Shown one piece after another: positions 1 through 19,792 of a stretch of DNA of 64,000 nt. The notes under the pieces are model-generated. The model ran no database searches. It saw only the letters and a list, made by a program, of their open reading frames with translations, and was not told the origin of the DNA. A program made the position numbers and the translations under genes. This stretch comes from Escherichia coli (GTDB lineage: Bacteria; Pseudomonadota; Gammaproteobacteria; Enterobacterales; Enterobacteriaceae), in the NCBI RefSeq assembly GCF_003018255.1, contig NZ_CP027440.1; one strand, written 5' to 3'. Positions within the stretch are counted from its first letter, which is position 1, and every line of letters starts with the position of its first letter.

Positions 1-180
1 CAACGCTCGTCCTACTTCCGATGCCGGGACAGAAAAAGAACCCTGCATCAGACCGAATATCAGTATTCCAACCGCAAACAGAAACAGCCCACCAAGCAAC
101 AGCAGATTTTTAGGGCGTACCAGTGTCGAAAACTTACCAACACGTAGTGGGCGTAGCCCGACGTTCATTATCCGACTCAT
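1..180 (-). CDS. iron-siderophore ABC transporter permease (FecCD family), 5' part only; gene runs off the window start
   Basis: Minus-strand ATG at 180-178 overlaps the TGA stop (179-177) of the upstream permease. Translation MSRIMNVGLRPLRVGKFSTLVRPKNLLLLGGLFLFAVGILIFGLMQG is a typical hydrophobic FecCD N-terminus. Absent from the ORF track because it has no in-window stop. Confidence 0.5.
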   Translation of the reverse strand, partial: MSRIMNVGLRPLRVGKFSTLVRPKNLLLLGGLFLFAVGILIFGLMQGSFSVPASEVGRAL

Positions 181-1160
181 TTGAACATCCTCGTCGCCAT
201 AATGACAAAAACAGGCGCACCAACTAACGCCGTCATGACACCGGTCGCTAACTCATGGGGCGTGAAAAGCGTCCGGGCAATAATATCTGCCAGTAATAAC
301 AAAAGTGCGCCGACACAAGCTGAAAGAGGGAGCAGAACGCGCAGATCCGCTGATACCAGACGCCGGACAATCTGCGGTACCAACAGGCCGACAAAACCAA
401 TGGGGCCAGCAATCGATACGGCTGCGCCACAGAGCAACGCGATCGCAAGCAGGGTAAATGTTCGCGTGCGGAGTACAGAGACGCCCAGCCCCTGCGCCAT
501 GCGATCGCCCAGTGCCAACATGTTAAGGTAGGGTGCAAGGTAAAGGGCTAACACAAATCCCCCCAGAGAAAACCAGGCGGACGTACCCAGCGTCGCCCAA
601 TCCTGCCCCGCTAAATCACCTGCTAGCCATGTCCGCATCGCCAGCAGTGTTTGTTCGTCAAGAATCAGGATTGCAGCCGTTATTGAGGACACGAACGCCG
701 ATAGCGCCACGCCGCATAAAGTAACTTTCATTGGCGTTACCCCTGAACGCCCTGCGGAGGAAAGCAGCAATATCAACAGGAACAATAACGCGCCCCCCGT
801 AGATGCCAGCAGTGGGCGTCCAACCGGAAAGGCCAGTCCAAGCGCACTGGCGGCAACGACAGCAAGAGCGGCTCCGGCATTTAAGCCTAAAATATGTGGC
901 TCCCCCAATGGGTTACGAATGACAGCCTGCAACAAAGCACCAGCAACACCAAGAGAAGCACCGGTAAGCAATGCTGCCGCTAAACGCGGCAAACGGAGTC
1001 TTACAATTACGTTGTGATCGAAGTTTTGCGGATCAAAATGAAGAAATGCCTGCAACACCGTTTGTGGTGCAATAAATCGGGCACCAATCCCTGGATATAC
1101 CACGCATCCCACCAGCAGTAAGGCGAGGAAAATTACAGTAACCAGCCCTGTGCGCATCAT
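177..1160 (-). CDS. iron-siderophore/B12-type ABC transporter permease (FecCD family)
   Basis: 327 aa polytopic membrane protein with FecCD-like C-terminal region (GAPVFV...); ATGA overlap with the upstream ATPase gene and with the next permease. Confidence 0.85.
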   Translation of the reverse strand: MMRTGLVTVIFLALLLVGCVVYPGIGARFIAPQTVLQAFLHFDPQNFDHNVIVRLRLPRLAAALLTGASLGVAGALLQAVIRNPLGEPHILGLNAGAALAVVAASALGLAFPVGRPLLASTGGALLFLLILLLSSAGRSGVTPMKVTLCGVALSAFVSSITAAILILDEQTLLAMRTWLAGDLAGQDWATLGTSAWFSLGGFVLALYLAPYLNMLALGDRMAQGLGVSVLRTRTFTLLAIALLCGAAVSIAGPIGFVGLLVPQIVRRLVSADLRVLLPLSACVGALLLLLADIIARTLFTPHELATGVMTALVGAPVFVIMATRMFK

Positions 1161-1966
1161 ACTTTTTCTACACCACGAAACGGCATGAAGAACGGCTTTC
1201 CCGTCAGAGGATTTATTGATGCGTGAACATCAACGTCAAAGACAGCTTTTACCAGCTCAGGCGTGCAATGCTCCCCCTCATTCAACACACGCACCACTTT
1301 CCCCTGGCGTAAAAATATCAACGTATCGCCATAATTGACGGCAAAATTCAGATCATGCAACACCACGACGACTGTACGCCCGTGATGACGCGTTAAATCA
1401 TGTAATAACTCAAGAATTTCAACCTGATAACGTAAATCAAGCCAGGTTGTGGGTTCATCCAGCAGGATATAAGGCGTCTTTTGCGCCAACACCATCGCAA
1501 TCCAGCAACGCTGGCGCTGCCCACCAGAGAGTTTTTCAACAGGTAAATGTGCAAACTCCTGCGTACCGGTTAATTTCAGGGCCTCTTCCACCGCCTGCTC
1601 ATCGGCGTCGCTCCATTGACGTATGAAATTTTGCCAGGGAAAACGCCCACGCGACACCAGTTCATAAACGGTTAAGCCCTCCGGCAATAATGGCGACTGC
1701 GGCAAGATCCCAAGTCTACGGGATAACGCTTTCGTTGGTTGCTCGTGAATCGCTTTGCCATCAAGCAATATCGAACCGCCCATAGGTTGCAAGATACGTG
1801 CAATGGTGCTGAGCAACGTCGACTTTCCACAGCCGTTTGCCCCAACCAGAACGGTCATTTTTTCTGTGGGAACGGAGAAAGAAACACCATCAACAATGAT
1901 CTTCTTGTGATACCCGGCAGAAACATTGTCGAGGATCAGCCCCTGCCCTTTTGCGTTATGTGCCAC
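1157..1966 (-). CDS. ABC transporter ATP-binding protein, FecE/FepC-like (iron-siderophore import)
   Basis: 269 aa; Walker A GANGCGKST, ABC signature LSGGQRQR, Walker B ILLDEPT; first gene of a minus-strand operon divergent from the TonB-dependent receptor. Confidence 0.9.
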   Translation of the reverse strand: MAHNAKGQGLILDNVSAGYHKKIIVDGVSFSVPTEKMTVLVGANGCGKSTLLSTIARILQPMGGSILLDGKAIHEQPTKALSRRLGILPQSPLLPEGLTVYELVSRGRFPWQNFIRQWSDADEQAVEEALKLTGTQEFAHLPVEKLSGGQRQRCWIAMVLAQKTPYILLDEPTTWLDLRYQVEILELLHDLTRHHGRTVVVVLHDLNFAVNYGDTLIFLRQGKVVRVLNEGEHCTPELVKAVFDVDVHASINPLTGKPFFMPFRGVEKV

Positions 1967-2218
1967 GTGTACGCCAACTTAATCAAAGACAAACAAAAAT
2001 AAAACTCATTCTCCTTTGAGAGTTTGACGCCACAAAATGTAGTAGTCAAGCAGTTAAAAGCCACACAAAAACAAGGTAAATAACAGGTAAAATATTTTTA
2101 TACATAAAAATAAAAACATTAAATATCAATAAATTAAAAGCAATCAAATTGTATAAGCCTTTCATAAAAACACATGTAGCAATTTTTTGTTATTTCTCAT
2201 TTACTACTACATTACTGC

Positions 2219-2241
2219 GTGATTGAATGATTCTCAATTAC
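2219..2241. promoter_or_regulatory. weak candidate Fur box in the divergent promoter region between ABC operon and receptor gene
   Basis: GATTGAATGATTCTCAATTA has partial hexamer similarity to the Fur consensus GATAATGATAATCATTATC (about 11 of 21 by eye), inside a 370 bp AT-rich intergenic region. Confidence 0.25.
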
Positions 2242-2339
2242 ATATCCGATGGCGAAATAACAAACGGATAGTGCTTAGTGAGCAATAAGAAACAATTTTC
2301 ACTCGCGACAATCCGCGAGTTTTTGGGATAACAGACTAA

Positions 2340-4481
2340 ATGGCTATGTTCACACCTTCATTCTCAGGACTCAAAGGTCGGGCGCTCTTTTCACTGCTTT
2401 TTGCGGCACCGATGATTCATGCAACAGACTCTGTAACGACCAAAGATGGCGAAACAATCACTGTTACAGCAGATGCAAATACCGCAACTGAGGCAACCGA
2501 TGGTTATCAACCTCTGAGCACCTCCACGGCGACATTAACCGATATGCCGATGCTGGATATCCCGCAGGTGGTCAATACGGTTAGCGATCAGGTTCTGGAA
2601 AACCAGAATGCGACGACGCTGGATGAGGCGCTTTATAACGTCAGTAACGTGGTACAGACCAATACATTAGGCGGGACTCAGGATGCTTTTGTACGCCGTG
2701 GGTTTGGCGCAAACCGGGATGGCTCCATCATGACCAACGGTCTGCGAACCGTACTTCCTCGCAGTTTCAACGCCGCCACAGAACGTGTGGAAGTGCTAAA
2801 AGGCCCGGCCTCCACGCTGTATGGCATTCTCGATCCTGGCGGACTGATTAACGTCGTGACCAAGCGCCCGGAAAAAACATTCCATGGTTCGGTTTCAGCC
2901 ACCTCCTCCAGTTTTGGTGGCGGCACTGGGCAACTTGATATCACAGGTCCCATTGAAGGCACTCAGCTGGCGTATCGCCTTACCGGGGAAGTGCAGGATG
3001 AAGATTACTGGCGAAACTTCGGTAAAGAGCGCAGTACATTTATTGCCCCGTCACTCACCTGGTTTGGTGATAATGCAACAGTAACCATGCTCTATTCCCA
3101 TCGGGACTATAAAACTCCGTTCGATCGTGGAACGATTTTCGACCTTACGACGAAACAGCCCGTAAACGTTGATCGAAAAATACGTTTTGACGAACCGTTT
3201 AATATTACAGATGGTCAGTCCGATCTGGCGCAACTCAACGCAGAATATCATCTCAATAGCCAGTGGACAGCGCGCTTTGATTACAGCTACAGCCAGGATA
3301 AATACAGCGATAATCAGGCGCGTGTTACCGCGTATGATGCAACGACAGGAACACTGACACGGCGTGTTGATGCAACTCAGGGATCTACCCAGCGTATGCA
3401 TGCTACTCGTGCGGATCTGCAAGGGAATGTTGATATTGCCGGATTCTATAATGAGATTCTGGGTGGGGTGTCATATGAATATTATGATCTTCTGCGTACA
3501 GATATGATTCGCTGTAAAAAAGCTAAAGATTTCAATATCTACAACCCTGTTTATGGTAATACCAGCAAATGTACAACGGTTTCGGCGTCGGACAGTGATC
3601 AGACGATCAAACAGGAGAGCTACTCAGCGTATGCACAGGACGCACTCTATCTGACCGATAACTGGATTGCCGTCGCCGGGATCCGCTATCAGTATTACAC
3701 GCAGTATGCGGGTAAAGGCCGTCCTTTTAATGTCAATACTGACAGCCGCGATGAACAATGGACTCCCAAACTGGGGTTGGTCTACAAACTGACGCCATCG
3801 GTATCCTTATTTGCCAATTATTCGCAAACATTTATGCCGCAGTCGTCAATTGCCAGCTACATTGGCGATCTTCCACCGGAATCATCTAATGCTTACGAAG
3901 TCGGGGCAAAATTCGAGCTATTCGATGGTATCACCGCAGATATTGCGCTGTTTGATATCCATAAACGTAATGTGTTGTATACCGAAAGTGTTGGTGATGA
4001 AACCATTGCCAAAACGGCAGGCCGTGTTCGTTCAAGAGGGGTAGAAGTCGACCTTGCGGGAGCATTAACTGAAAACATTAATATCATTGCCAGCTACGGC
4101 TATACCGATGCTAAGGTTCTGGAAGATCCTGATTATGCAGGTAAACCATTGCCGAATGTTCCTCGTCATACCGGTTCGCTATTCCTGACCTATGACATTC
4201 ATAACATGCCTGGCAATAACACACTGACGTTTGGCGGTGGTGGACATGGCGTAAGCCGTCGTTCGGCAACCAATGGGGCTGACTATTATCTGCCAGGCTA
4301 TTTTGTTGCCGATGCCTTCGCCGCATACAAAATGAAATTGCAGTATCCGGTCACACTGCAATTAAACGTCAAAAACCTGTTTGATAAAACGTATTACACC
4401 TCTTCCATCGCCACAAATAATCTGGGGAATCAGATTGGCGATCCGCGTGAAGTGCAATTCACGGTGAAAATGGAATTTTGA
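2340..4481 (+). CDS. TonB-dependent outer-membrane siderophore receptor (FhuA/FhuE-like)
   Basis: 713 aa; signal peptide; TonB-box-like ETITVTA near the N-terminus; plug-domain motifs; C-terminal aromatic residue (VKMEF) typical of OM beta-barrels. Confidence 0.9.
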   Translation: MAMFTPSFSGLKGRALFSLLFAAPMIHATDSVTTKDGETITVTADANTATEATDGYQPLSTSTATLTDMPMLDIPQVVNTVSDQVLENQNATTLDEALYNVSNVVQTNTLGGTQDAFVRRGFGANRDGSIMTNGLRTVLPRSFNAATERVEVLKGPASTLYGILDPGGLINVVTKRPEKTFHGSVSATSSSFGGGTGQLDITGPIEGTQLAYRLTGEVQDEDYWRNFGKERSTFIAPSLTWFGDNATVTMLYSHRDYKTPFDRGTIFDLTTKQPVNVDRKIRFDEPFNITDGQSDLAQLNAEYHLNSQWTARFDYSYSQDKYSDNQARVTAYDATTGTLTRRVDATQGSTQRMHATRADLQGNVDIAGFYNEILGGVSYEYYDLLRTDMIRCKKAKDFNIYNPVYGNTSKCTTVSASDSDQTIKQESYSAYAQDALYLTDNWIAVAGIRYQYYTQYAGKGRPFNVNTDSRDEQWTPKLGLVYKLTPSVSLFANYSQTFMPQSSIASYIGDLPPESSNAYEVGAKFELFDGITADIALFDIHKRNVLYTESVGDETIAKTAGRVRSRGVEVDLAGALTENINIIASYGYTDAKVLEDPDYAGKPLPNVPRHTGSLFLTYDIHNMPGNNTLTFGGGGHGVSRRSATNGADYYLPGYFVADAFAAYKMKLQYPVTLQLNVKNLFDKTYYTSSIATNNLGNQIGDPREVQFTVKMEF

Positions 4482-4488
4482 TCAAAAA

Positions 4489-4510
4489 AGCCCGGTATGT
4501 TTACCGGGCT
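4489..4510. terminator. hairpin between convergent receptor gene and GPH transporter gene
   Basis: AGCCCGGTA-tgtt-TACCGGGCT perfect stem, preceded by an A-run (T-run on the minus strand). Confidence 0.5.
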
Positions 4511-4588
4511 GAGACTGATGACAAACTCCAAATTGTCTGATGCGCTACGCCCATCAGATCTACCATAGAAATTCAATATATTAAATTT

Positions 4589-5929
4589 TCATATATTTTT
4601 AGGCTGTAAACACACCTTAATCTGTTCGTAATATTCATTATTAATCAGATAAAATCTCATGATGAGTCCGGTAATCAGGTTAAGTATCGCGGGAATGATC
4701 GTCATTAACAGGCAGATCCCCCACAACGCCTGTGGTGTTTGTTCTACGCCAGGTTGATAGTCCATAAACGCTAAAGCGATTCCGATAAACCCTCCCGCCA
4801 GTCCCATACCAAACTTTTGAAAAAAGAGAATCCCGCCAAATGCCAGTCCAGAAACACGTTGCCCCGTTTTCATTTCACCATAATCCACTGACTCAGCAAT
4901 GGATGCCCAATAAATGGGAAGCTGAATATCAGTCAGAAAGGTCACCACAATATAAAATGTAAAAGCTAACACTATAGAATTTGGTTGCACGAAATACATC
5001 GCACCACCCACCACGAACGCCAGTAATTGGGTATAACGAAATATTTTTATTTTGTCGTAGAGTCGAGTAAGCCAGGTGCAAGCGATCATAGCCAGAACAG
5101 AGGCGATCACGCCTGAAGTTAAAAACGGTGAAATTAAAGCATCCCCACCATTCAGGTAATATTTTGCATAATATGCAGCGACAGAGTTACGAATAATCCC
5201 GCCAAACATAATGATCGCAATTACAGCGCCCAAAATGAGCCATTGATCATTTTTGATCAGTAACCGAAACTGCGCGGCCATACCGAGACTGGGTTTTGGA
5301 TGGTAGATGCGCTCTCTCACGCTAAAAAAACAATACAGGCATAAACACGTTGCCAGAATTCCCATTGCCCCCATTGCTATTTGATAACCCAGTTGTACGT
5401 TATTCTTCCCAAGATACATTGCAGATAAAGGAACAATAATTGTTACGGCGAACATGGCAATTTTTGTCATAACAAAACGATAACCATTGGCGCTCAATCG
5501 CTCTTGTGGATCATCCGTGATAACGCTGATTAATGAAACATAAGGAATAGCGATTAACGTATAGGTCAAGGTAAGTAACACATAGGTAGCCCAAGCCCAT
5601 AAAAGCTTAACTGAATAATCGGTATTAGGTGTGGTGAACATCAACCAAATGCTTATCCCAAACGGTATTGACATAAAAAGCAACCACGGCCGATATTTTC
5701 CCCAACGTGTATTCGTTCTGTCTGTCATTGTTCCCACAACTGGATCAATCACAGCATCAAGGATACGTACAGAAAATAACAGAATACCTAAGTCGACGGG
5801 TTTCAGACCAAATACATCCGTGTAAAAATAAGTGATGATCATGGCCAAAGACATCATTACTATCGCGATAGCCATATCACCAGCACCAAAACCTATCTTT
5901 TCATTTATTGTAAGTTTCATACACAGCAC
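4589..5929 (-). CDS. GPH-family (glycoside-pentoside-hexuronide) cation symporter
   Basis: About 445 aa polytopic protein; N-terminal GPH/MelB-type signature YFYTDVFGL...RILDAVIDPVVGTMTDRTNTRWGKYRPWLL; true start may be the second Met (5920). Confidence 0.85.
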   Translation of the reverse strand: MLCMKLTINEKIGFGAGDMAIAIVMMSLAMIITYFYTDVFGLKPVDLGILLFSVRILDAVIDPVVGTMTDRTNTRWGKYRPWLLFMSIPFGISIWLMFTTPNTDYSVKLLWAWATYVLLTLTYTLIAIPYVSLISVITDDPQERLSANGYRFVMTKIAMFAVTIIVPLSAMYLGKNNVQLGYQIAMGAMGILATCLCLYCFFSVRERIYHPKPSLGMAAQFRLLIKNDQWLILGAVIAIIMFGGIIRNSVAAYYAKYYLNGGDALISPFLTSGVIASVLAMIACTWLTRLYDKIKIFRYTQLLAFVVGGAMYFVQPNSIVLAFTFYIVVTFLTDIQLPIYWASIAESVDYGEMKTGQRVSGLAFGGILFFQKFGMGLAGGFIGIALAFMDYQPGVEQTPQALWGICLLMTIIPAILNLITGLIMRFYLINNEYYEQIKVCLQPKNI

Positions 5930-6010
5930 TCATTGATTACGTGAACTTATATTAAAAACAAATATATCTGAACTCATTCAGCACATAACTTTACGAGTGA
6001 GCATAAATGC

Positions 6011-6025
6011 ATTGGTTGATACCAC
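6011..6025. promoter_or_regulatory. candidate operator dyad TTGGT-N4-ACCAC (site 1)
   Basis: ATTGGTTGATACCAC in the divergent intergenic region, about 90 bp upstream of the GPH transporter start; same dyad ends as site 2. Confidence 0.35.
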
Positions 6026-6173
6026 AACAAACCATTGAGTCAATATTGAGCAACATCACATAAAAACCAATTTCACTTAATCTCATGATTTATATATTTA
6101 ATTGTGGTTTTTTCTGTTTTATGTCACAGATAGTGAACAAGCACCATGCGTAATAAAAGTTAAAGAATGTAGA

Positions 6174-6188
6174 GTTGGTATCAACCAC
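6174..6188. promoter_or_regulatory. candidate operator dyad TTGGT-N4-ACCAC (site 2)
   Basis: GTTGGTATCAACCAC just upstream of the RBS of the GntR-family gene; the central 4 nt are the reverse complement of site 1. Confidence 0.35.
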
Positions 6189-6206
6189 TTGAAATGAGGC
6201 TTTGTC

Positions 6207-6959
6207 ATGATAAAAATTTATAAAGCCAGTAAAGGTCAGCTAAAGCATCGTGAAATCTTTGATGAAATAAAGAAAAAAGTAGATAACGGTGAATGGAAAG
6301 AAGGCAAAGCCATACCGACAGAAAGGGAATTGTCAGAATATTATTTAAGTAGCAGAACAACTATTCGAAAGGCAATAGAAAGTCTTAAACAACGCGGCTA
6401 CCTGCATAGTGTCCACGGGCAAGGAACATTTGTATTGCCTTCTCGTAGTAGAGAAAATCATTTATTGCATAGTTTTACCGACGATATTAAAGCTCGAGGT
6501 GGTATACCAGCACAGAATATTCTTGAGATAGGCTATGTTCCTGTCAGTGATGTTATCAGAAAAAATCTCGACCTGGATATCCATATCCAAACCGTATTCT
6601 GTATAAAACGCGTTCGCTATATGGGAAGTACCCCCCTGGGTATTCAGACATCATGGCTTGCATTAAATGACAGGCAAGAAATAACCCAAGAAGATCTGCT
6701 GGCGACGGGTTCGCTCTATATTTTACTGGAAGAAAAACTCGCTATTAAACCTTTAGAAGCAACAGAAATTATCTCTGCCCGGCTTCCCTCGCCCCTTGAG
6801 CGTCAATTACTGGAACTGACTGCCGATGATGTCGTATTAAGTTGTACCCGCGTCACGTTATCCGTGGAACGCAAACCAATGGAGTATGTAGAGATGGTGT
6901 ATCCCGCAAGCCGGTACTCCTACAAAGCACGAATTACAAAAGACAGTTTTAGCGTGTAA
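6207..6959 (+). CDS. GntR-family transcriptional regulator, HutC/FrlR-like (HTH plus UTRA-type C-terminal domain)
   Basis: 250 aa; N-terminal GntR HTH pattern (ERELSEYYLSSRTTIRKAIESL...GYL.SVHGQGTFV); first gene of a tightly packed co-directional array. Confidence 0.85.
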   Translation: MIKIYKASKGQLKHREIFDEIKKKVDNGEWKEGKAIPTERELSEYYLSSRTTIRKAIESLKQRGYLHSVHGQGTFVLPSRSRENHLLHSFTDDIKARGGIPAQNILEIGYVPVSDVIRKNLDLDIHIQTVFCIKRVRYMGSTPLGIQTSWLALNDRQEITQEDLLATGSLYILLEEKLAIKPLEATEIISARLPSPLERQLLELTADDVVLSCTRVTLSVERKPMEYVEMVYPASRYSYKARITKDSFSV

Positions 6960-6972
6960 CAGAGAGAATATT

Positions 6973-8049
6973 GTGAACAAAATAGAACAAGCTGTAATTT
7001 ATAACAAAATATTAGGTTCTTTAGCCTGCGCAGGTATGGGCGATGCATTAGGCGCAGCGACTGAACTCTACAGCATTGATGAAATAAAAGCTCAATGGGG
7101 AGGTTTTTTAAATGCCTTTGTTTCTCCTCCTGCCGATACATTCGCTGGCTCATTAAATGGTATTGCGGGACTTATCACCGACGATTCCAGCCAAATGTAT
7201 GTGTTTTCAGAAGGGTTAATTGAGGCTGGATTTGATAACTTCACCAATAATGACTGGTTAGCTTGTCTTCTGCGTTGGGCCGATATGCAGCCCTACGCAA
7301 ATTATAAAGGCCCCACAACAGAACAAATCGTCAAGGCACTAAAAGAAGGTAGACCAACAAACACCATTGGGCGTATTGGAACATCTTCTCGTCAGGCACC
7401 CAATGTCGGCACCACGAATGGAGCAGGAATGCGTGTAGCCCCTGCAGGATTGATCTGGCCAGGCAAGAAAGAAAAAGCGTGTCACCTGGCGCTAATAACT
7501 TGCCTACCTTCGCATGACACCAATATTGCGATTGCCAGCGCTTGCGCCATCGCTGCGGCGACATCACAAGCTATGTTACCAGAAGCTTCGCTCACATCAT
7601 TACTGGACGCCGCAATCTGGGGAGCGAATTACGGCGAACGCCTGGCCAAACAATATGCACGATGTGTCGCAGGGCCATCTATCGCCATGCGCATCCAACT
7701 TGCAGCGGACATCGCCAGACGAGCCAATGACCTGGAGTCTTGTCTGCGAGAAATGGAAGGTTTGGTTGGTAACTCTGTTGCCGCCCATGAATCCATTCCT
7801 GCGGCAATCGGTCTATTGCTGTACTGCAAAGGAGAACCCTGGGAAACCATTCATGCCTGCGCCAATATTGGCAATGACACCGATAGCATCGCTACGATGG
7901 CAGGCGCAATTGCAGGGGCATGGCGCGGTTTTGATGCGCTCCCTGAAGATAAATATGCCTTTTTCCGCGCCGTAAATAATAAAGATTTCGATATTGAAGC
8001 GATCGCATCGGGTCTGACATTGCTTGCATTAGAGGCACAGGAGAAATAA
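6973..8049 (+). CDS. ADP-ribosylglycohydrolase-family (DraG/ARH-like) hydrolase
   Basis: 358 aa; GTG start 14 nt after the regulator stop; N-terminal GSLACAGMGDALGAATE and C-terminal GNDTDSIATMAGAIAGA match the two metal-binding signature regions of the family. Confidence 0.8.
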   Translation: MNKIEQAVIYNKILGSLACAGMGDALGAATELYSIDEIKAQWGGFLNAFVSPPADTFAGSLNGIAGLITDDSSQMYVFSEGLIEAGFDNFTNNDWLACLLRWADMQPYANYKGPTTEQIVKALKEGRPTNTIGRIGTSSRQAPNVGTTNGAGMRVAPAGLIWPGKKEKACHLALITCLPSHDTNIAIASACAIAAATSQAMLPEASLTSLLDAAIWGANYGERLAKQYARCVAGPSIAMRIQLAADIARRANDLESCLREMEGLVGNSVAAHESIPAAIGLLLYCKGEPWETIHACANIGNDTDSIATMAGAIAGAWRGFDALPEDKYAFFRAVNNKDFDIEAIASGLTLLALEAQEK

Positions 8050-9047
8050 TGAACATGCCAGCCCGTACTCCTGTTATGCCATTAGCGCAAACTCGTGAGG
8101 AGATAAATGCTACGGCGGCATCGTTACGCCATTTGGCAGCTATCTGGGGTGAATGTTTTTCTACTTTTCAGCTCGATAAACGTGCTGTTGAACGCGTCTG
8201 TATAGTGGGATCGGGCGACTCCTGGACGGTGGCACTATGTGCCGCCGCCTGGCTGGGGAAATACACACATCTGTTTTGTTACGCATTGCAAACGTGGGAT
8301 TTTCTTCAGACTGATTTAACCCGTTATCAGAAAGAAACGTTAATCATTATTCTCAGTGCAAGTGGCAGACCATCAATGACCGTTGACGCCCTCTGCCACG
8401 CAGTATGCTCAAACGCGCAAGTGCTGGGTGTGACGAATTGCCCTGGAACACCATTTTGCGCAATAACAGAAAACATGCTCTATACATGGGCGAATAAGCA
8501 GGGTATTCCAACGCAAAGTAGTAGCGTCACACTTTATGCCCTCCTGCGCTTAGCGCAAAAATTATGTCCAGGCTTAACACCACTGCAGATTGAAGATGAT
8601 TTGGAAGGGAAATTTAGCCAGATTAATCAGCACTGGCAGCAAAAGAAGCGCCATTTTTACCAACAAAAAGAGATAACGTTTCTTGGGAGTGGCTTAAGTT
8701 GGGGACTGGCAATATCGGGGAGCAATTTACTTTCTTGCGGCCCACAGATTCGTGCGACAGCCCTTCCACTGGAAGAATTTTATCATTCATTACGCTTACA
8801 TCAGGCTGGTGTCGGTCAGCATTATATTTTACTACCAGCCACATCCTGCGAGTCCCCATTTTACCTTGCAACCCAAAAAGCAATTGTTGAACAGGGAGCG
8901 ACAGCAGAATTAATCAGTTTTATACCTGACGCCAGTGAGTCCAACAATTTATTTCTGGTCATGCAGTGGTTATATGAAATGTGCTGGAATTTAAGTTGTG
9001 ATTATGTCGACGCAGGCGGGCAACGCGTTAGCCATAGGGAGAAATAA
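8049..9047 (+). CDS. double SIS-domain sugar-phosphate isomerase/deglycase-like protein
   Basis: 332 aa; start overlaps the upstream stop (TAATG); SIS motifs VCIVGSGDSWTVAL...LIIILSASGRPSMTVDAL...VLGVTN and a second GSGLSW repeat; unusually Cys/Trp rich. Confidence 0.65.
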   Translation: MNMPARTPVMPLAQTREEINATAASLRHLAAIWGECFSTFQLDKRAVERVCIVGSGDSWTVALCAAAWLGKYTHLFCYALQTWDFLQTDLTRYQKETLIIILSASGRPSMTVDALCHAVCSNAQVLGVTNCPGTPFCAITENMLYTWANKQGIPTQSSSVTLYALLRLAQKLCPGLTPLQIEDDLEGKFSQINQHWQQKKRHFYQQKEITFLGSGLSWGLAISGSNLLSCGPQIRATALPLEEFYHSLRLHQAGVGQHYILLPATSCESPFYLATQKAIVEQGATAELISFIPDASESNNLFLVMQWLYEMCWNLSCDYVDAGGQRVSHREK

Positions 9048-9051
9048 GACT

Positions 9052-9966
9052 ATGAAGAAATTTGATGTCGCCGCTTTAGGCAGTGGAAATATAGATATTT
9101 TTTTATCTATCCCGTCACTCCCCACTCGTGGCGGTAAAGTTGTCGGGACACGTCTGGGTGAACAAGCTGGCGGCACAGTCGCCAACAGTGCCTGTGCGAT
9201 GGGACAACTGGGTCTCAATGTGGTATCTGTTTCATGTGTGGGCAATGATCATTCAGCCTCGATCATTCTTGATGGATTTAAAAAATATCATGTAAATTGT
9301 GATTTCGTTCAGGTAATTCCGGAATTGATTGCCAATACCGCGATTATCTTTATTGATGAATTAGGTGAAAAAACGTTGGTTTACTCGCCTGGTAGTGATC
9401 ATGAGTGGGATAAAGAAAAAGCCCTGCAGGCAATTGCGCAAAGCCGTTATTTTTATACGATGCCAGCAGATATCGAGAAATTTCGTATGCTGGCCGAATA
9501 TTCCCGTAGCCAGATGACAAAAGTTGTCGTTGATATTGAGCCTCATATCATTGCAACACCTGAACACCTTGCCAGAATTTTACACCTTGCTGATATTGCG
9601 ATATTTAATTATGACGGTTTTATTCGTGGCTATGCAACAGAGCCAGATTTTACACTTCTGCATGATATACAAGACGAGTATCAACTTGACGCTGTCGTGG
9701 TTACGCTGGATGTTAGGGGAGTAATTGCAGTCAAAGGCAATGAGCAAGTAAAAATAGGTAGTTATACAATTCCCGTTATTGATACCACAGGCGCTGGAGA
9801 TACTTTTAATGGTGCATTTGTTTATAGCTTAATAAAAAATATGCCCTTAATTGAAGCACTAAAATTTGCTTCTGCCACAGCAGCAATAAATATTACTGCA
9901 TTAGGTGCCAGAGGTCATCTGCCGACACCATCGGAGGTTAATCTTTTTCTTTCACAACACGACTAA
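9052..9966 (+). CDS. PfkB-family carbohydrate/nucleoside kinase (ribokinase-like)
   Basis: About 304 aa taking Met at 9052, 5 nt after the SIS stop (the ORF-track start 8998 is an upstream extension); PfkB signature DTTGAGDTFNGAF and N-terminal AALGSGNIDIF. Confidence 0.85.
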   Translation: MKKFDVAALGSGNIDIFLSIPSLPTRGGKVVGTRLGEQAGGTVANSACAMGQLGLNVVSVSCVGNDHSASIILDGFKKYHVNCDFVQVIPELIANTAIIFIDELGEKTLVYSPGSDHEWDKEKALQAIAQSRYFYTMPADIEKFRMLAEYSRSQMTKVVVDIEPHIIATPEHLARILHLADIAIFNYDGFIRGYATEPDFTLLHDIQDEYQLDAVVVTLDVRGVIAVKGNEQVKIGSYTIPVIDTTGAGDTFNGAFVYSLIKNMPLIEALKFASATAAINITALGARGHLPTPSEVNLFLSQHD

Positions 9967-9993
9967 AATCATATATATACAAAGGTAAATATC

Positions 9994-11118
9994 ATGAAAA
10001 TAAGATATGCCGCTATTTTTCTGGCATTACCGCTGTTATGCACAACAGCGCAGGCAAACAGTTTTCTTCATTATGCTGGGGAGTTTAACTTCCGGACGGG
10101 AGAAAAGCAGAACAATGTCACAATCGCGGGGCTATCAGCCATCACATTTGATGCAAAAAAAAATATTTTCTATGCTATTAACGATAGCAGAAACAATAAT
10201 AAAGAAGGAGATGCCAGTCTTTATACACTAAAAATACAGGTATCATCCAGGGGCATTGAGCAAGTGAATTTTCTCAACCAGCGTCCACTGCTTGATGCAA
10301 AACAGCAACCTTTCGTGACCAATACGGTGGATGCCGAAGGTCTGGCCCTGACACACAATGGTAAATCATTACTCTGGAGTTCGGAGTTAGGTGCTCCACT
10401 GCGTCTGAGCACTCTCGATGGCGTAATGGAGAAAGATTTTACGTCTTTATTTCCTGCTCGCTTTAATATTAGTTCTGACAAAGAGAGCAGCAATGGTATT
10501 CGCAGCGGCAACGCCTGGGAGGGCCTGACAGTTACACCAGATGGAAAATCACTTTTTATCGCCGTTGAAAGCAGCCTTAAACAGGATGGGCCTATTGCAA
10601 GTCCAATAAATTCAGGCACATCACGCTTACTGCAATTTTCTATAGATGCAGACGGTCGACCTTCAAAGCAATTGCATGAATATCTCTATATTACTGATCC
10701 TGTTCCGCAAGTGAGTAAGTTCGGTATTAATGATAATGGCGTATCCGAGGTCATGGCGCTGAATGATCACCAATTGTTGGTCATCGAACGTTCCGGCAGA
10801 AACGTCAGTGCTGGGTTCAATGACTGGGATTACTCTGTCAGAGTTTATATGGTCGATTTAACTGCTGCCAGCGATATCAAGAATATTGACAGTCTGCAAG
10901 ATTGGTCCAATAAATCCACGTTACAACCCGTCAGTAAAAAATTATTAATTGATTTTGCTGATTACACTTCCTCTGCGGATTGTATTGAAGGGGTAACCTT
11001 CGGTCCTCTGATTGATGGGCATACATCGTTAATATTTGTATCTGATAATAATTTCCAGCCCCATCAACAGACGAAATTTTATCTATTCATTGATAAGGAA
11101 AACAAACTTAAAATTTAA
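9994..11118 (+). CDS. secreted protein of unknown function, possibly phytase-like/beta-propeller esterase fold (tentative)
   Basis: 374 aa; N-terminal signal peptide (LALPLLCTTAQA); AT-rich codon usage; function inferred only from general resemblance. Confidence 0.5.
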   Translation: MKIRYAAIFLALPLLCTTAQANSFLHYAGEFNFRTGEKQNNVTIAGLSAITFDAKKNIFYAINDSRNNNKEGDASLYTLKIQVSSRGIEQVNFLNQRPLLDAKQQPFVTNTVDAEGLALTHNGKSLLWSSELGAPLRLSTLDGVMEKDFTSLFPARFNISSDKESSNGIRSGNAWEGLTVTPDGKSLFIAVESSLKQDGPIASPINSGTSRLLQFSIDADGRPSKQLHEYLYITDPVPQVSKFGINDNGVSEVMALNDHQLLVIERSGRNVSAGFNDWDYSVRVYMVDLTAASDIKNIDSLQDWSNKSTLQPVSKKLLIDFADYTSSADCIEGVTFGPLIDGHTSLIFVSDNNFQPHQQTKFYLFIDKENKLKI

Positions 11119-11213
11119 AGTCAAACTATAGATACAAAAACATTCTAATACATGGAATCATCAGATGGTGTATTCGATCACCAAAAATATATTTTATTCT
11201 GAAAGGGAATATT

Positions 11214-11948
11214 ATGAATTCTTATCTTAAAATATCACTTGCAGGAATAACAATGTTATCCTGCCTGTCACCTACACTAGTCTGTGCAGAACAGCCGCAT
11301 GGATTTATTGATTATCGCCATGAGTATCTTGATGATACTCGCACCCACGCGGACCGCGTTGAATTTGGTACATTTTTTAGTAATGGTATCGGTTTGATGG
11401 GAGAATTACGCTATAACACCGATGAAGGTGATAAAGATAAGTGGGACCCCTCACAATTTGGCAATAACGGAACAGGATTATCTGTTGTTTACCGCTTTAA
11501 GCCGCTGGATGACAAAAAATTCTGGTTAGAACCCATGTTCTGGCTTGATACCACGCAATATTGGTCAACTTACGAATATGGTCTTTCTGCGGGTTATGAC
11601 TTCAGCAAAGAATGGAAAGTTTCAGGTCGGTTTCGTTATGACATGGATAAAGCCACCGATAAATCCAAAGGTTATGGCAACGATGATCGTAATAACCGCC
11701 GTTACGATGTGTGGATCGACTATCGACCACAAAAAACCAACTTCCAATATCAGTTAAACCTGGTCTATTACAATAATGGTTATTTAACCTGGAATGATGG
11801 CCATAAAAACTATACCGCATCATTTAAAGTAGGGTACAAAATGGGATCGTGGATACCCTATATGAGTATTGCGGATTATAAAGGTGTGGATAAAACATCA
11901 AGTAATCGCCAAATCCGCTGGCGCTGGGGTCTGACTTATACTTTCTAA
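11214..11948 (+). CDS. small outer-membrane beta-barrel protein, KdgM/NanC-like porin (tentative)
   Basis: 244 aa; signal peptide; alternating aromatic/hydrophilic strands; C-terminal WRWGLTYTF ending in Phe as in OM barrels. Confidence 0.5.
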   Translation: MNSYLKISLAGITMLSCLSPTLVCAEQPHGFIDYRHEYLDDTRTHADRVEFGTFFSNGIGLMGELRYNTDEGDKDKWDPSQFGNNGTGLSVVYRFKPLDDKKFWLEPMFWLDTTQYWSTYEYGLSAGYDFSKEWKVSGRFRYDMDKATDKSKGYGNDDRNNRRYDVWIDYRPQKTNFQYQLNLVYYNNGYLTWNDGHKNYTASFKVGYKMGSWIPYMSIADYKGVDKTSSNRQIRWRWGLTYTF

Positions 11949-11961
11949 TCTGGAATAAAAA

Positions 11962-12831
11962 ATGAATAATAAATTTAAAATCATTCTCTGGATGATGCTC
12001 TCTGCTCTGCCTGCTTTATCTTACGCACAGGTAAAAAATATAGTTACTGGCGAATATAGTGCGGTCAGTAAAATTATCACAGAAAAGGAAACTCTCTATC
12101 CATCCGATAAGATATTATTGGTTTTTGACATTGATAACACGTTATTAACGAGTGGCACTCGCATTGGCGGTGATATCTGGTATCAATGGCAAACCGATAA
12201 ATTGCCTTTAAAGCCGGATGACTCGCAAAAAGTTCCTTGCCTGTATGAAAATACAATCAGTATGCTTTACGAACTTAGCCCTATGCAGCTTACCGAGCCA
12301 CAGTTACCGACAATGTTAAAACAGTGGCAACAAAAGCATACCGCTTTTGCTCTGACATCCCGTGCACCGGATACTCTCTTTCCGACATTGCGGGAATTAA
12401 AGCGAAACGGCATTGATTTTTCGTCTTCCGCACTCAGGAAGAAAGAGGATACTTTGCCACCCTTTGAAAAAGGGAAACTCAAACGGTCATGGCTGTACAG
12501 CCAGGGGGTATTTTTTTCTTCCGGGCAAGATAAAGGCGTAATTCTCGATTATATGCTGGATAAAATGGGGAACAAATATGACGCGATTGTTTTTATCGAT
12601 GACGGGCAAGCAAACATTCATGCGATGACGAAGATGTTCTCTAAGGATAAATGGTCCTCTACGGATTTTACCATTATTCACTATACCAGAGTGGAGGATG
12701 AGCTTATTAAACAACAAGGTGCAGTAATAACAACTGCACAAGCAGAAAAAATGGCTACGGACTGGAAAACTCTGGCTGGTTCGCTGGCAACACTATTTCC
12801 AGATCGTAATAAACTGTGCCCAATAAAATAA
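11962..12831 (+). CDS. secreted HAD-superfamily phosphatase (acid-phosphatase-like)
   Basis: 289 aa; signal peptide; HAD motif I LVFDIDNTLL and motif IV-like VFIDDGQAN. Confidence 0.55.
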   Translation: MNNKFKIILWMMLSALPALSYAQVKNIVTGEYSAVSKIITEKETLYPSDKILLVFDIDNTLLTSGTRIGGDIWYQWQTDKLPLKPDDSQKVPCLYENTISMLYELSPMQLTEPQLPTMLKQWQQKHTAFALTSRAPDTLFPTLRELKRNGIDFSSSALRKKEDTLPPFEKGKLKRSWLYSQGVFFSSGQDKGVILDYMLDKMGNKYDAIVFIDDGQANIHAMTKMFSKDKWSSTDFTIIHYTRVEDELIKQQGAVITTAQAEKMATDWKTLAGSLATLFPDRNKLCPIK

Positions 12832-12839
12832 TCAACGAC

Positions 12840-12868
12840 AACCCGGCAAAACACATGTTTGCCGGGTT
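12840..12868. terminator. bidirectional hairpin between the accessory operon and parE
   Basis: AACCCGGCAAA-acacatg-TTTGCCGGGTT perfect 11 bp stem between convergent genes. Confidence 0.55.
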
Positions 12869-12875
12869 AAGATTA

Positions 12876-14771
<1,896 letters not shown>

Positions 14772-16652: not shown

Positions 16653-17282
16653 TTATGCCCACTCATTTTTTAACGCTTGATGATGCAGCTGCAGCCATTG
16701 CAAAGCGATGACCGACGCTGCGTTGTCGATTTTCCCCTCTTCTACCCACTGGTATGCCTGTTCCCGGCTTACCACATGAACGCGAATATCTTCGTTTTCA
16801 TCAGCCAGACCGTGAATACCGCTTGCGGTCGTGGCGTCCACTTCGCCCACCATAATTGACGAACGCTCACTGGTGCCCCCCGGGCTTGCCAGGAAACTTA
16901 ACACCGGTTTGGTCCGTTTGACTATCAGTCCCGCCTCTTCAATCGCTTCGCGACGGGCAACATCTTCCACACTTTCACCCTCTTCAATCATCCCGGCAAC
17001 CATCTCCAGTAGCCAGGGGGTTTCGCTAGTGTCGTACGCGGCAATTCGAATCTGCTCAATCAGCACAACTTCATCACGCACTGGGTCAAAGGGTAGCAAG
17101 ACTGCGGCGTGACCGCGCTCAAAAATTTCCCGCCGTACCTCATGACTCATTTGCCCGTTGAATAGACGATGACGAAATCTATAAAGATCTAATGAAAAAA
17201 AGCCGCGATAAAGTGTTTCTCGTGCAATAATTTCTACATCGTTTTTGCCAAATGTAACGGGCAGGTTGTCTGGCTTAAGCAT
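16653..17282 (-). CDS. nudF: ADP-ribose pyrophosphatase (Nudix)
   Basis: 209 aa; Nudix box ([22 protein letters not shown]); synteny. Confidence 0.9.
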
Positions 17283-17486
17283 TGTTAATGTCCTGGCACT
17301 AATAGTGAATTAAATGTGAATTTCAGCGACGTTTGACTGCCGTTTGAGCAGTCATGTGTTAAATTGAGGCACATTAACGCCCTATGGCACGTAACGCCAA
17401 CCTTTTGCGGTAGCGGCTTCTGCTAGAATCCGCAATAATTTTACAGTTTGATCGCGCTAAATACTGCTTCACCACAAGGAATGCAA

Positions 17487-18968
17487 ATGAAGAAATTGCT
17501 CCCCATTCTTATCGGCCTGAGCCTTTCTGGTTTCAGTTCGTTGAGCCAGGCCGAGAACCTGATGCAAGTTTATCAGCAAGCACGCCTTAGTAACCCGGAA
17601 TTGCGTAAGTCTGCCGCCGATCGTGATGCTGCCTTTGAAAAAATTAATGAAGCGCGCAGTCCATTACTGCCACAGCTAGGTTTAGGTGCAGATTACACCT
17701 ATAGCAACGGCTACCGCGACGCGAACGGCATCAACTCTAACGCGACCAGTGCGTCCCTGCAGTTAACTCAATCCATTTTTGATATGTCGAAATGGCGTGC
17801 GTTAACGCTGCAGGAAAAAGCAGCTGGGATTCAGGACGTCACGTATCAGACCGATCAACAAACCTTGATCCTCAACACCGCGACCGCTTATTTCAACGTG
17901 TTGAATGCTATTGACGTTCTTTCCTATACACAGGCGCAAAAAGAAGCGATCTACCGTCAATTAGATCAAACCACCCAACGTTTTAACGTGGGCCTGGTAG
18001 CGATCACTGACGTGCAGAACGCCCGCGCACAGTACGATACCGTGCTGGCGAACGAAGTGACCGCACGTAATAACCTTGATAACGCGGTAGAGCAGCTGCG
18101 CCAGATCACCGGTAACTACTATCCAGAACTGGCGGCGCTGAATGTCGAAAACTTTAAAACCGACAAACCACAGCCGGTTAACACGCTGCTGAAAGAAGCC
18201 GAAAAACGCAACCTGTCGCTGTTACAGGCGCGCTTGAGCCAGGACCTGGCGCGCGAGCAAATTCGCCAGGCGCAGGATGGTCACTTACCGACTCTGGATT
18301 TAACGGCTTCTACCGGGATTTCTGACACCTCTTATAGCGGTTCGAAAACCCGTGGTGCCGCTGGTACCCAGTATGACGACAGCAATATGGGCCAGAACAA
18401 AGTTGGCCTGAGCTTCTCGCTGCCGATTTATCAGGGCGGAATGGTTAACTCGCAGGTGAAACAGGCCCAGTACAACTTTGTTGGTGCCAGCGAGCAACTG
18501 GAAAGCGCGCATCGTAGCGTCGTGCAAACCGTACGTTCCTCCTTCAACAACATTAATGCTTCTATCAGTAGCATTAACGCCTACAAACAAGCCGTAGTTT
18601 CCGCTCAAAGCTCATTAGACGCGATGGAAGCGGGTTACTCGGTCGGTACGCGTACCATTGTTGATGTGTTGGATGCGACCACCACGCTGTACAACGCCAA
18701 GCAAGAGCTGGCGAATGCGCGTTATAACTACCTGATTAACCAGTTGAATATTAAATCAGCTCTGGGTACGTTGAACGAGCAGGATCTTCTGGCACTGAAC
18801 AATGCGCTGAGCAAACCGGTTTCCACTAATCCGGAAAACGTTGCCCCGCAAACGCCGGAACAGAATGCTATTGCTGATGGTTATGCGCCTGATAGCCCGG
18901 CACCCGTCGTTCAGCAAACATCCGCACGCACTACCACCAGTAACGGTCATAACCCTTTCCGTAACTGA
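17487..18968 (+). CDS. tolC: outer-membrane efflux channel TolC
   Basis: 493 aa from MKKLLPILIGLSLSGFSSLSQA; the ORF-track start 17448 is an upstream extension. Confidence 0.97.
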   Translation: MKKLLPILIGLSLSGFSSLSQAENLMQVYQQARLSNPELRKSAADRDAAFEKINEARSPLLPQLGLGADYTYSNGYRDANGINSNATSASLQLTQSIFDMSKWRALTLQEKAAGIQDVTYQTDQQTLILNTATAYFNVLNAIDVLSYTQAQKEAIYRQLDQTTQRFNVGLVAITDVQNARAQYDTVLANEVTARNNLDNAVEQLRQITGNYYPELAALNVENFKTDKPQPVNTLLKEAEKRNLSLLQARLSQDLAREQIRQAQDGHLPTLDLTASTGISDTSYSGSKTRGAAGTQYDDSNMGQNKVGLSFSLPIYQGGMVNSQVKQAQYNFVGASEQLESAHRSVVQTVRSSFNNINASISSINAYKQAVVSAQSSLDAMEAGYSVGTRTIVDVLDATTTLYNAKQELANARYNYLINQLNIKSALGTLNEQDLLALNNALSKPVSTNPENVAPQTPEQNAIADGYAPDSPAPVVQQTSARTTTSNGHNPFRN

Positions 18969-19115
18969 TGACGACGACGGGGCTTCGGCCCCGTCTGAAC
19001 GTAAGGCAACGTAAAGATACGGGTTATCTGCCGCATTCTTCCCCCTTCTCGCTTCAATTTCGACCAGCCATCCTCTATTCTGATGGGTATTTACCACTGG
19101 TCCCGGAAGACAAAA

Positions 19116-19787
19116 ATGAAACGGACAAAATCCATACGCCACGCATCGTTCCGCAAAAACTGGAGCGCACGCCATCTGACACCAGTCGCTCTCGCGGTTG
19201 CCACTGTTTTTATGCTGGCTGGCTGTGAAAAGAGTGATGAAACAGTGTCTCTCTATCAAAATGCTGACGACTGTTCAGCTGCAAACCCAGGCAAAAGCGC
19301 CGAATGTACCACCGCGTACAACAATGCGCTGAAAGAAGCCGAACGTACTGCGCCGAAATACGCCACTCGTGAAGACTGTATTGCTGAATTTGGCGAAGGT
19401 CAGTGCCAGCAGGCACCAGCCCAGGCTGGCATGGCACCGGAAAACCAGGCGCAGGCCCAGCAATCCAGCGGGAGTTTCTGGATGCCGCTGATGGCCGGTT
19501 ACATGATGGGTCGTCTGATGGGCGGCGGTGCGGGATTTGCACAGCAGCCGCTGTTCTCCTCGAAAAACCCAGCCAGCCCGGCTTACGGTAAATATACCGA
19601 CGCGACGGGTAAAAACTATGGCGCAGCCCAGCCAGGCCGCACCATGACCGTACCGAAGACAGCCATGGCACCAAAACCGGCGACCACCACTACCGTTACC
19701 CGTGGCGGTTTTGGTGAATCTGTTGCCAAACAAAGCACTATGCAGCGTAGCGCAACCGGCACCTCTTCTCGTTCAATGGGTGGCTGA
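19116..19787 (+). CDS. ygiB: DUF1190 lipoprotein YgiB
   Basis: 223 aa from [12 protein letters not shown]...; lipobox LAGC; tolC-ygiBC synteny. Confidence 0.8.
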
Positions 19788-19792
19788 TACCG

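Follow-up and report, generated by a model that had tools for sequence, protein, structure and literature searches.

We analysed a 64,000-nucleotide stretch of Escherichia coli DNA (NCBI RefSeq assembly GCF_003018255.1, contig NZ_CP027440.1; hereafter the window), in which three adjacent genes at positions 6973-9966 encode an ADP-ribosylglycohydrolase (ARH)-fold protein, a SIS-domain protein and a PfkB-family kinase. This trio is the cytoplasmic part of a catabolic cassette that is real, conserved and regulated, is accessory in E. coli and was probably acquired horizontally. A preliminary description of the region had presented the three genes as its predicted enzymatic core. They do form a cytoplasmic core, but they are only part of a regulated eight-gene cassette with a periplasmic front end, a porin and a transporter (Table 1), and as a whole that earlier interpretation was partly supported.

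The three open reading frames lie on the plus strand with a TAATG overlap between the first two, as had been described, and this is borne out by the open reading frame list, by the RefSeq gene calls of identical E. coli genomes, with which all three frames coincide, and by the junction letters, where gagaaaTAATGaac at 8047-8051 contains the overlapping ARH stop and SIS start. The spacing between the SIS and kinase genes, previously given as 5 nt, is 4 nt: the junction reads TAA (9045-9047), GACT and then ATG at 9052, and a Shine-Dalgarno sequence, GGGAGA at 9037-9042, lies ten bases 5' of the kinase ATG. A kinase start at GTG 8998, which would create a 50-nt overlap with the SIS gene, was ruled out because the orthologues all begin with MKK[FY]DV, corresponding to the start at 9052. 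Tight junctions were also found in the orthologous loci (Vibrio, +1/+9 nt; Providencia, -4/+15 nt), and the order ARH-SIS-PfkB is kept in Enterobacterales, Vibrio and Nitrospirillum/Azospirillum, while in Chloroflexi the arrangement is ARH or the nucleoside hydrolase IUNH, followed by SIS-PfkB. Because gene order and tight junctions recur in other taxa, the linkage of the trio is not a chance adjacency. These data support co-transcription and tight coupling of the three genes; the further claim of stoichiometric co-expression was not supported, since the overlap suggests translational coupling and not stoichiometry.

To define the extent of the cassette we compared filled and empty sites. The segment 6000-12900, flanked by the fit iron-transport locus and parE, is 100% identical in several fully sequenced E. 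coli strains. Among 5426 complete E. coli genomes, ~406 (about 7%) carry the trio and 1870 the adjacent fit locus. In genomes with fit only, which represent the empty site, fitA directly abuts parE, and the comparison places the insert at ~4511-12870 (~8.4 kb, 8 genes), with a GC content of 0.421 against 0.50 for the window.

Table 1. Genes and operator-like sites of the cassette, with positions in the window
Feature	Position	Strand	Annotation and evidence
ARH gene	6973-8049	+	GTG start; RefSeq "ADP-ribosylglycohydrolase family protein"
SIS gene	8049-9047	+	ATG start; RefSeq "SIS domain-containing protein"
PfkB gene	9052-9966	+	ATG start; RefSeq "carbohydrate kinase family protein"
GPH-family (MFS_2) symporter gene	4589-5920	- (divergent)	NCBIfam TIGR00792 gph, 348 bits, above cutoff; YagG-like; RefSeq "MFS transporter"
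Operator-like palindrome TGGTTGATACCA	6013-6024		HutC/GntR type; transporter side of the divergent promoter region
Operator-like palindrome TGGTATCAACCA	6176-6187		20 nt before the start codon of gntR; exact inverted partner of 6013-6024
GntR/HutC regulator gene (HTH + UTRA)	6207-6959	+	First gene of the plus-strand operon
Gene for secreted "phytase-like" beta-propeller	9994-11118	+	PF13449; signal-peptide-like N-terminus; invariant Asp/Glu/Arg
KdgM-family outer-membrane porin gene	11214-11948	+	Pfam KdgM, 3.6e-30
Gene for secreted DUF2608 protein	11962-12831	+	Pfam DUF2608, 5.8e-60; weak HAD_2 and Acid_phosphat_B; NCBIfam HAD-IIIC, 6.6e-05

Families and active-site residues of the three proteins

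The ARH, SIS and PfkB assignments made previously were confirmed by Pfam, and the expected catalytic residues, namely the Asp/Thr metal motifs of the ARH protein and the GAGD motif of the kinase, are both intact. The ARH protein matches PF03747 (ADP_ribosyl_GH) with an i-Evalue of 4.5e-49 over model positions 1-287 of 287. In a PDB sequence search its nearest solved structure was MJ1187 (PDB 1t5j; 2.5e-21), followed by ARH3, and DraG was also matched. Residues D24, E31, T69-D70-D71 and D302-T303-D304 are invariant in 19 of 19 orthologues, down to 50% identity, and the C-terminal motif GNDTDSIATMAG aligns to GGDTDTIATMAG of ARH3. Enterobacterales, Vibrio and Burkholderiales have homologues with 50-85% identity to it. 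The protein has the fold and the di-metal Asp/Thr motifs in common with ARH1, ARH3, DraG, Tri1 and the orphan MJ1187, but its scores fall far under the NCBIfam equivalog cutoffs for DraG (41 bits; cutoff 337) and Tri1 (22 bits; cutoff 490), and its gene stands in a catabolic context rather than a regulatory or toxin-linked one. To our knowledge, the removal of ADP-ribosylation is almost the only role for which ARH-fold proteins are known; cleavage of N-ribosyl-guanidine bonds is among the activities of known ARH enzymes. From family and motif content, we predict that the protein is a cytoplasmic hydrolase of a glycosidic bond in a ribosyl conjugate.

The SIS fold of the second protein is certain (Pfam SIS, 1.6e-07), and canonical isomerase or deglycase chemistry is not. 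The family profile matches the GlmS isomerase domain over both SIS domains (GlmS residues 288-587; E 1.2e-19), and the AlphaFold model (pLDDT 86.6) superimposes with a TM score of 0.75-0.80 on 1moq, 3tbf, 8eym and 2v4m, which comprise the GlmS C-terminal domain, NagB-II and related structures. Four motifs are invariant in the family (GSGDS, SxSGR, AxKxGxPxQ and EE[FY]xH[AS]LR). The first two form the phosphate loops at 54-58 and 103-107, aligning to CGTS and SQSGET of GlmS as (near-)invariant segments, and altogether ~30 residues are invariant, including a polar set made up of D57, R107, K150, Q156, E242, E243, H246 and R249. In GlmS, E488 is the catalytic base and H504 the ring-opening histidine. 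The invariant H246, within EE[FY]xH, aligns to H504, while the E488 column holds Cys in E. coli, Enterobacter, Providencia, Vibrio, Kosakonia and Trabulsiella, Glu in Chloroflexi and Ala in Nitrospirillum/Azospirillum, and the column of GlmS K485 is an invariant Leu. Because the E488 equivalent is not conserved and the K485 equivalent is Leu, isomerase activity is no more than putative, and the earlier statement that the protein would isomerise or deglycate a sugar phosphate is not established. The score against the FrlB equivalog model is 19.2 bits (cutoff 430). We predict that the protein is a phosphosugar-binding, isomerase-like member of the structural class that includes the GlmS isomerase domain, NagB-II, AgaS and FrlB. 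We observed in addition that the SIS gene diverges much faster than its neighbours (8049-9047 compared with 11083-12090 of the Enterobacter locus L007): between E. coli and Enterobacter sp. BIGb0383 the SIS proteins share 49% identity, the ARH proteins 79% and the kinases 61%.

The kinase matches PF00294 (PfkB; 7.9e-44) and carries the GAGD anion-hole and catalytic Asp motif, with DTTGAGDTF conserved in all orthologues. Its best PDB matches are ribokinases, and it scores 148.2 bits against the NCBIfam ribokinase model TIGR02152, about half of the cutoff of 299.65; scores against the equivalog models of FrlD (45.3 bits; cutoff 247) and of pseudouridine kinase (23 bits; cutoff 540) are lower. 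Mapping onto E. coli RbsK showed that D16, G41, G42, N46, N187, G254 and D255 are kept, that K43 is replaced by T or P, E143 by an invariant P and E190 of the NXXE motif by an invariant G, and that N14 is variable. The ribose-contacting and metal-motif positions of RbsK comprise N14, D16, K43, N46, E143, N187/E190 and D255; among them, K43, E143 and N14 contact the anomeric side of free ribose. Because these three are lost, the substrate may be substituted at C1, and the kinase may act on an uncleaved riboside instead of on free ribose, so that the order of hydrolase and kinase is open. The protein is ribokinase-like without being an RbsK orthologue, and is predicted to act on the 5-OH of a (substituted) ribofuranose.

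Gene neighbourhoods of related loci

A scan for ARH relatives with one genome per species returned 326, and the best 80 of these 326 loci, which span many phyla, were used for neighbour counts. Neighbours within 7 kb of the ARH gene were labelled by BLASTP against reference proteins from the E. coli cassette and three related loci, and the shortness of some contigs makes the counts minimum values. A PfkB kinase was found in at least 68 of the 80 loci, a Bmp-type (nucleoside-type) ABC transporter, recognised by its binding-protein gene, in 36, one or more IUNH nucleoside hydrolases in 33 and a GntR regulator in 32. Less frequent were the PF13449 phytase-like protein (14/80), a SIS protein of the type in the E. 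coli cassette (13/80) and a GPH/MFS transporter (6/80). Several individual loci add Tsx, a UshA-type 5'-nucleotidase, adenosine deaminase or TonB-dependent receptors. Because Bmp transporters, Tsx, IUNH, 5'-nucleotidase and adenosine deaminase recur nearby, the substrate class is most readily read as a nucleoside- or nucleotide-derived riboside. Fructosamines, which had been named before as candidate substrates, and protein-bound ADP-ribose are not favoured by this context.

The SIS family is commonest in Chloroflexi, where four contexts share the arrangement of two to three IUNH genes (with or without ARH), SIS, PfkB, in some cases another PfkB, a second SIS and a nucleoside:H+ symporter. ARH is absent from three of these four SIS-PfkB contexts. 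Because the SIS-PfkB pair follows IUNH in Chloroflexi with or without ARH, the hydrolase slot is interchangeable; SIS-PfkB is a conserved pair downstream of whichever N-ribohydrolase is present, and the E. coli ARH fills the nucleoside hydrolase slot. The Chloroflexi nucleoside loci (L021, at 1014-3013 and 17020-19827; L089, L090, L092 and L093) also repeatedly hold BtpA/SgcQ, a TrpF-like phosphoribosylanthranilate isomerase and YjbQ. A canonical GlmS-like protein as second SIS and as many as three or four PfkB genes complete this conserved and puzzling multi-isomerase set.

Firmicutes loci hold two to five ARH paralogues in tandem, accompanied by PfkB and a Bmp ABC transporter. In gut Firmicutes (Hungatella, Erysipelotrichaceae and Lachnoclostridium; L062 at 2138-5217, L063 at 7834-13153, and L077) there are three to five, suggesting substrate diversification within one locus. 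One Firmicutes locus with tandem ARH genes also holds BtpA and a gene resembling isomerases of ribose-1,5-bisphosphate or 5-methylthioribose-1-phosphate, and such isomerase-like genes, transaldolase and TrpF-like genes make up the pentose-phosphate-type content of other locus variants. The ARH-PfkB pair was further found in one archaeal metagenome-assembled genome (MAG). In a marine actinobacterium (L048, 14339-15286) a gene of the agmatinase/ureohydrolase family lies between ARH and PfkB, which hints at a ribosyl-guanidino substrate there.

Orthologues of the cassette abut mobile-element genes in several genera, with Tn7-like tnsABCDE in Vibrio (L002, 13485-21062), antirestriction, DUF932 and RadC genes in Providencia (L005, 18297-21083) and an integrase in a gammaproteobacterial MAG (L068, 11451-12779). 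These neighbours are consistent with horizontal spread.

The remaining genes, regulation and borders of the cassette

Two operator-like palindromes lie in the divergent promoter region between the symporter gene and the plus-strand operon, and TGGTWKMWACCA has just two exact matches in the 64 kb of the window, at 6013-6024 and 6176-6187. Pairs of TGGT-N4-ACCA also stand directly 5' of the GntR gene in the Providencia, Enterobacter, Kosakonia, Trabulsiella, Vibrio, Methylibium, Herbaspirillum and Rhizobium loci; by this sequence comparison, the palindrome pair is a phylogenetic footprint of a putative conserved regulon. NCBIfam matches of the regulator are to HutC-, PhnF- and TreR-like models, all under the equivalog cutoffs, and its orthologues carry Pfam GntR and UTRA domains; we predict that it is the repressor of the cassette. 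No convincing terminator was seen on the plus strand between 6207 and 12831.

The divergently transcribed GPH symporter, whose orthologues adjoin the ARH gene in Providencia, Enterobacter, Kosakonia, Trabulsiella and Woeseiaceae loci, is predicted to be the inner-membrane importer of a dephosphorylated riboside. The phytase-like protein, annotated in RefSeq as "esterase-like activity of phytase family protein", has orthologues that carry PF13449, and its gene adjoins ARH loci in Enterobacterales, Vibrio and Burkholderiales. Its model is an all-beta propeller (pLDDT 89.1); a PDB sequence search gave no matches, Foldseek returned generic beta-propellers with TM scores of 0.3-0.4, and no informative fusions appeared among the 120 best matches listed, all of which are essentially single-domain PF13449 proteins. 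It is predicted to be a periplasmic phosphoesterase acting on an extracellular precursor. The KdgM family is known for anionic oligosaccharides, and KdgM orthologues are present in the Vibrio, Providencia, Enterobacter, Kosakonia and Trabulsiella cassettes, some of which have Tsx too. For the DUF2608 protein a PDB sequence search was likewise without matches; its slot is occupied by a UshA-type 5'-nucleotidase (Metallophos and 5_nucleotid_C) in Vibrio, Providencia, Kosakonia and Trabulsiella, and we predict that it is a periplasmic phosphatase.

At the cassette ends inspection revealed no direct repeats, integrase or transposase. GC-rich, terminator-like hairpins flank the insert at 4490-4509 and 12840-12868, and the empty site has a single, different hairpin. 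The neighbouring fit locus (177-4481) has been described before (PMC2593036) and encodes FecCD permeases, an ATPase and the TonB-dependent receptor FitA. We considered whether the cassette and fit could act as one system, for example on a ribosylated siderophore, and rejected this on the unequal distribution of the two (fit in 1870 genomes, the cassette in 406) and on the direct junction of fitA with parE where the cassette is missing. A functional link to nudF (ADP-ribose diphosphatase; 16653-17282, minus strand), 4 kb away, was also rejected, as nudF is a core gene found at the same place in cassette-free genomes and its proximity is coincidental. A role in anti-phage defence was dismissed because five cassette proteins gave no PADLOC matches. 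The fit repressor FitR is itself a MurR/RpiR protein with HTH and SIS domains; a sensor of this sugar-phosphate type is odd in the control of siderophore transport.

Candidate pathway and its alternatives

On balance we favour, with moderate confidence, a reading in which the cassette, under GntR(HutC) control, scavenges a nucleotide-derived, ribose-containing compound and the trio is its cytoplasmic catabolic core. A phosphorylated, anionic precursor (a nucleotide, a dinucleotide or an ADP-ribose-like molecule) would enter through the KdgM-type porin, and in the periplasm the phytase-like esterase and the HAD-like phosphatase would strip its phosphate esters, a 5'-nucleotidase serving as the presumed phosphatase in other genera. 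The resulting neutral riboside would be imported by the GPH symporter, a step for which most other taxa would use the Bmp-type nucleoside ABC transporter. In the cytoplasm the ARH-fold enzyme would hydrolyse the bond at ribose C1, in the slot held by IUNH in related loci, and PfkB would phosphorylate the 5-OH of the ribofuranose, with either the still uncleaved riboside or the freed sugar as its substrate. The first option would follow the logic of YeiC/PsuK and YeiN/PsuG, in which the nucleoside is phosphorylated first and then cleaved to base and ribose-5-phosphate. The SIS protein would bind the sugar phosphate and probably isomerise it toward pentose-phosphate metabolism. The cleave, phosphorylate and process scheme sketched in the preliminary description retains its fit to family chemistry and context, with the last step and the order of steps left open. 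Sequence comparison establishes which genes are present, their motifs, their conserved linkage and operator and the accessory status of the cassette; the chemistry of each step, the sequence of steps and the substrate are inferred.

Several observations weigh against this reading. The E488-equivalent Cys of the SIS protein is unconserved across the family and its K485 equivalent is Leu. Plain ribose-5-phosphate as a product would need no dedicated isomerase, so the simple scheme may be wrong about the sugar or about the chemistry; it is possible that the sugar is not plain ribose, that the SIS protein acts on a C1-substituted intermediate or that this GlmS-like protein senses a phosphosugar without catalysis. 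Glycosides and oligosaccharides, not nucleosides, are the usual associates of KdgM porins and GPH transporters. The role of phosphoesterase given to the phytase-like protein comes from the family name and the recurrent pairing with 5'-nucleotidase, and this protein has no informative structural neighbour. Our literature search found no demonstrated activity for any member of this ARH, SIS or kinase clade, nor for YegU; apart from work on the fit transporter, the only relevant items it returned were a paper on GgaR/yegTUV and a preprint on Bacteroides Rus, neither of which characterises these proteins.

Of the known systems, yegTUV with its repressor GgaR (YegW) in E. coli K-12 has the same tightly packed set of nucleoside/glycoside-type MFS transporter, ARH, PfkB and HutC-type GntR. 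At 32% (YegU), 22% (kinase) and 26% (GgaR/YegW) identity its proteins are paralogues and not orthologues of those of the cassette. Unlike the cassette, yegTUV has no SIS protein, periplasmic esterase, phosphatase or porin, the yegT region lacks the TGGT-N4-ACCA site, and the operon is core in K-12 whereas the cassette is accessory. The pseudouridine pathway likewise places a PfkB kinase gene beside that of a metal-dependent glycosidase acting at ribose C1, although PsuG has a different fold from ARH and cleaves a C-glycoside. In Bacteroidetes, the ribose utilization systems (Rus), which are polysaccharide utilisation loci (PULs), combine ribokinases with variable ribose-releasing enzymes, including nucleoside hydrolases and ADP-ribosylglycohydrolases (Glowacki et al., bioRxiv 10.1101/574913), and are proposed to obtain free ribose from nucleosides, cofactors and ADP-ribose (bioRxiv 10.1101/574913). 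As in the cassette, ribokinases, transporter and regulator are coupled to ribose-releasing enzymes, a likeness that is conceptual; Rus differs in being built on SusC/D, in its regulators and in having no SIS partner.

The frlABCDR operon resembles the cassette in combining a HutC-type GntR, a PfkB kinase (FrlD) and a two-domain GlmS-like SIS protein (FrlB), and it raises the alternative of deglycation of a glycated amine, with PfkB as FrlD, SIS as FrlB and ARH cleaving an un-rearranged N-glycosylamine. The substrate would then belong to the Amadori compounds or glycosylamines, for example a ribulosamine, a fructosamine or a ribosyl-amino acid. We regard this as unlikely. The shared frlR/frlD/frlB architecture, the presence of FrlB-type deglycases in the SIS fold class (3eua, 4e-13), the activity of known ARHs on N-ribosyl-guanidine bonds and the agmatinase-family gene of the actinobacterial locus all speak for it, as do Chloroflexi operons in which the same SIS stands with a TrpF-like Amadori isomerase, an M20 peptidase and a second GlmS-like SIS. 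Set against this are the FrlB and FrlD scores far below cutoff, the missing equivalent of the catalytic Glu in the SIS protein and the proximity of the kinase to ribokinases. The cassette also lacks a FrlA-type amino-acid permease and a FrlC epimerase, the neighbours of related loci being instead Bmp ABC transporters, Tsx, IUNH, 5'-nucleotidase and adenosine deaminase, and it adds, beyond ARH, a periplasmic phosphoesterase and phosphatase front end that has no role for glycated amines. A different alternative retains ARH and PfkB as the chemistry of the system, as in yegUV, and makes the SIS protein a non-enzymatic phosphosugar sensor that regulates the kinase or hydrolase, like the SIS-built glucokinase regulatory protein. 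The variable catalytic-base position (Cys, Glu or Ala), the Leu at the K485 equivalent, the faster divergence of the SIS protein, the many ARH-PfkB loci without SIS, including yegTUV, and the invariable position of the SIS gene directly beside that of PfkB are in accord with such a sensor. It is nevertheless quite improbable in our estimation: ~30 invariant residues, with the polar cluster and the ring-opening His equivalent, resemble an active site, and Cys can act as an isomerase base, as it does in RpiB.

We also weighed whether the ARH protein reverses ADP-ribosylation of a protein, nucleic acid or small molecule for regulation or repair, as do DraG, ARH1/3 and Tri1, its neighbours recycling the ADP-ribose. 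The full-length PF03747 match with intact di-metal motifs and the distant similarity to DraG and Tri1 models and to ARH3 structures would suit such an eraser, and B. thetaiotaomicron can use ADP-ribose through Rus, but the equivalog scores fall far short and the gene sits in a catabolic operon of transporter, regulator and kinase. Neither the cassette nor the related loci annotated with Pfam and NCBIfam showed an ADP-ribosyltransferase, nitrogenase, toxin or macrodomain as partner, the BLASTP labelling of the 80 loci not having included these families, and PADLOC gave no defence matches. The two to five tandem ARH genes of Firmicutes, beside a nucleoside-type transporter, are typical of substrate-diversified catabolic enzymes, and we hold this alternative to be very unlikely. 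Both the fructosamine pathway and protein de-ADP-ribosylation fit less well than riboside scavenging.

Within the scavenging reading, a more specific form can be entertained, which we consider doubtful: the ARH clade would be a cytoplasmic hydrolase of ribosides (or riboside-5'-phosphates), replacing or complementing IUNH for a bond that IUNH cannot cut, and the Cys-bearing SIS protein a new pentose-phosphate isomerase obligatorily paired with a riboside-type PfkB. If this were true, candidate bonds would be those of alpha-N- or O-ribosides, for example in 2'-O-ribosyladenosine or another ADP-ribose-derived riboside, and 2'-O-ribosyladenosine could arise from phosphodiesterase and phosphatase digestion of poly(ADP-ribose) or of TIR-type cyclic ADP-ribose signals.

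The cassette gives no sign of a new kind of molecular machine and is a variant of a known but uncharacterised locus type; if it performs ordinary ribose salvage, the result is modest. A large and phylogenetically broad set of ARH proteins, including YegU, sits in transporter-kinase operons of unassigned substrate, and the cassette offers a tractable E. coli example of these, with natural presence/absence strains, a predicted repressor and operator and a route from the outer membrane to the cytoplasm. Solving it would probably assign the substrate of the ARH clade, as well as functions for the GlmS-like SIS clade and for the PF13449 and DUF2608 proteins, and could show which nucleotide-derived nutrient benefits some gut, avian and porcine lineages of E. 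coli. Its main interest is as a route to the substrates of the many ARH-fold enzymes that work outside signalling.

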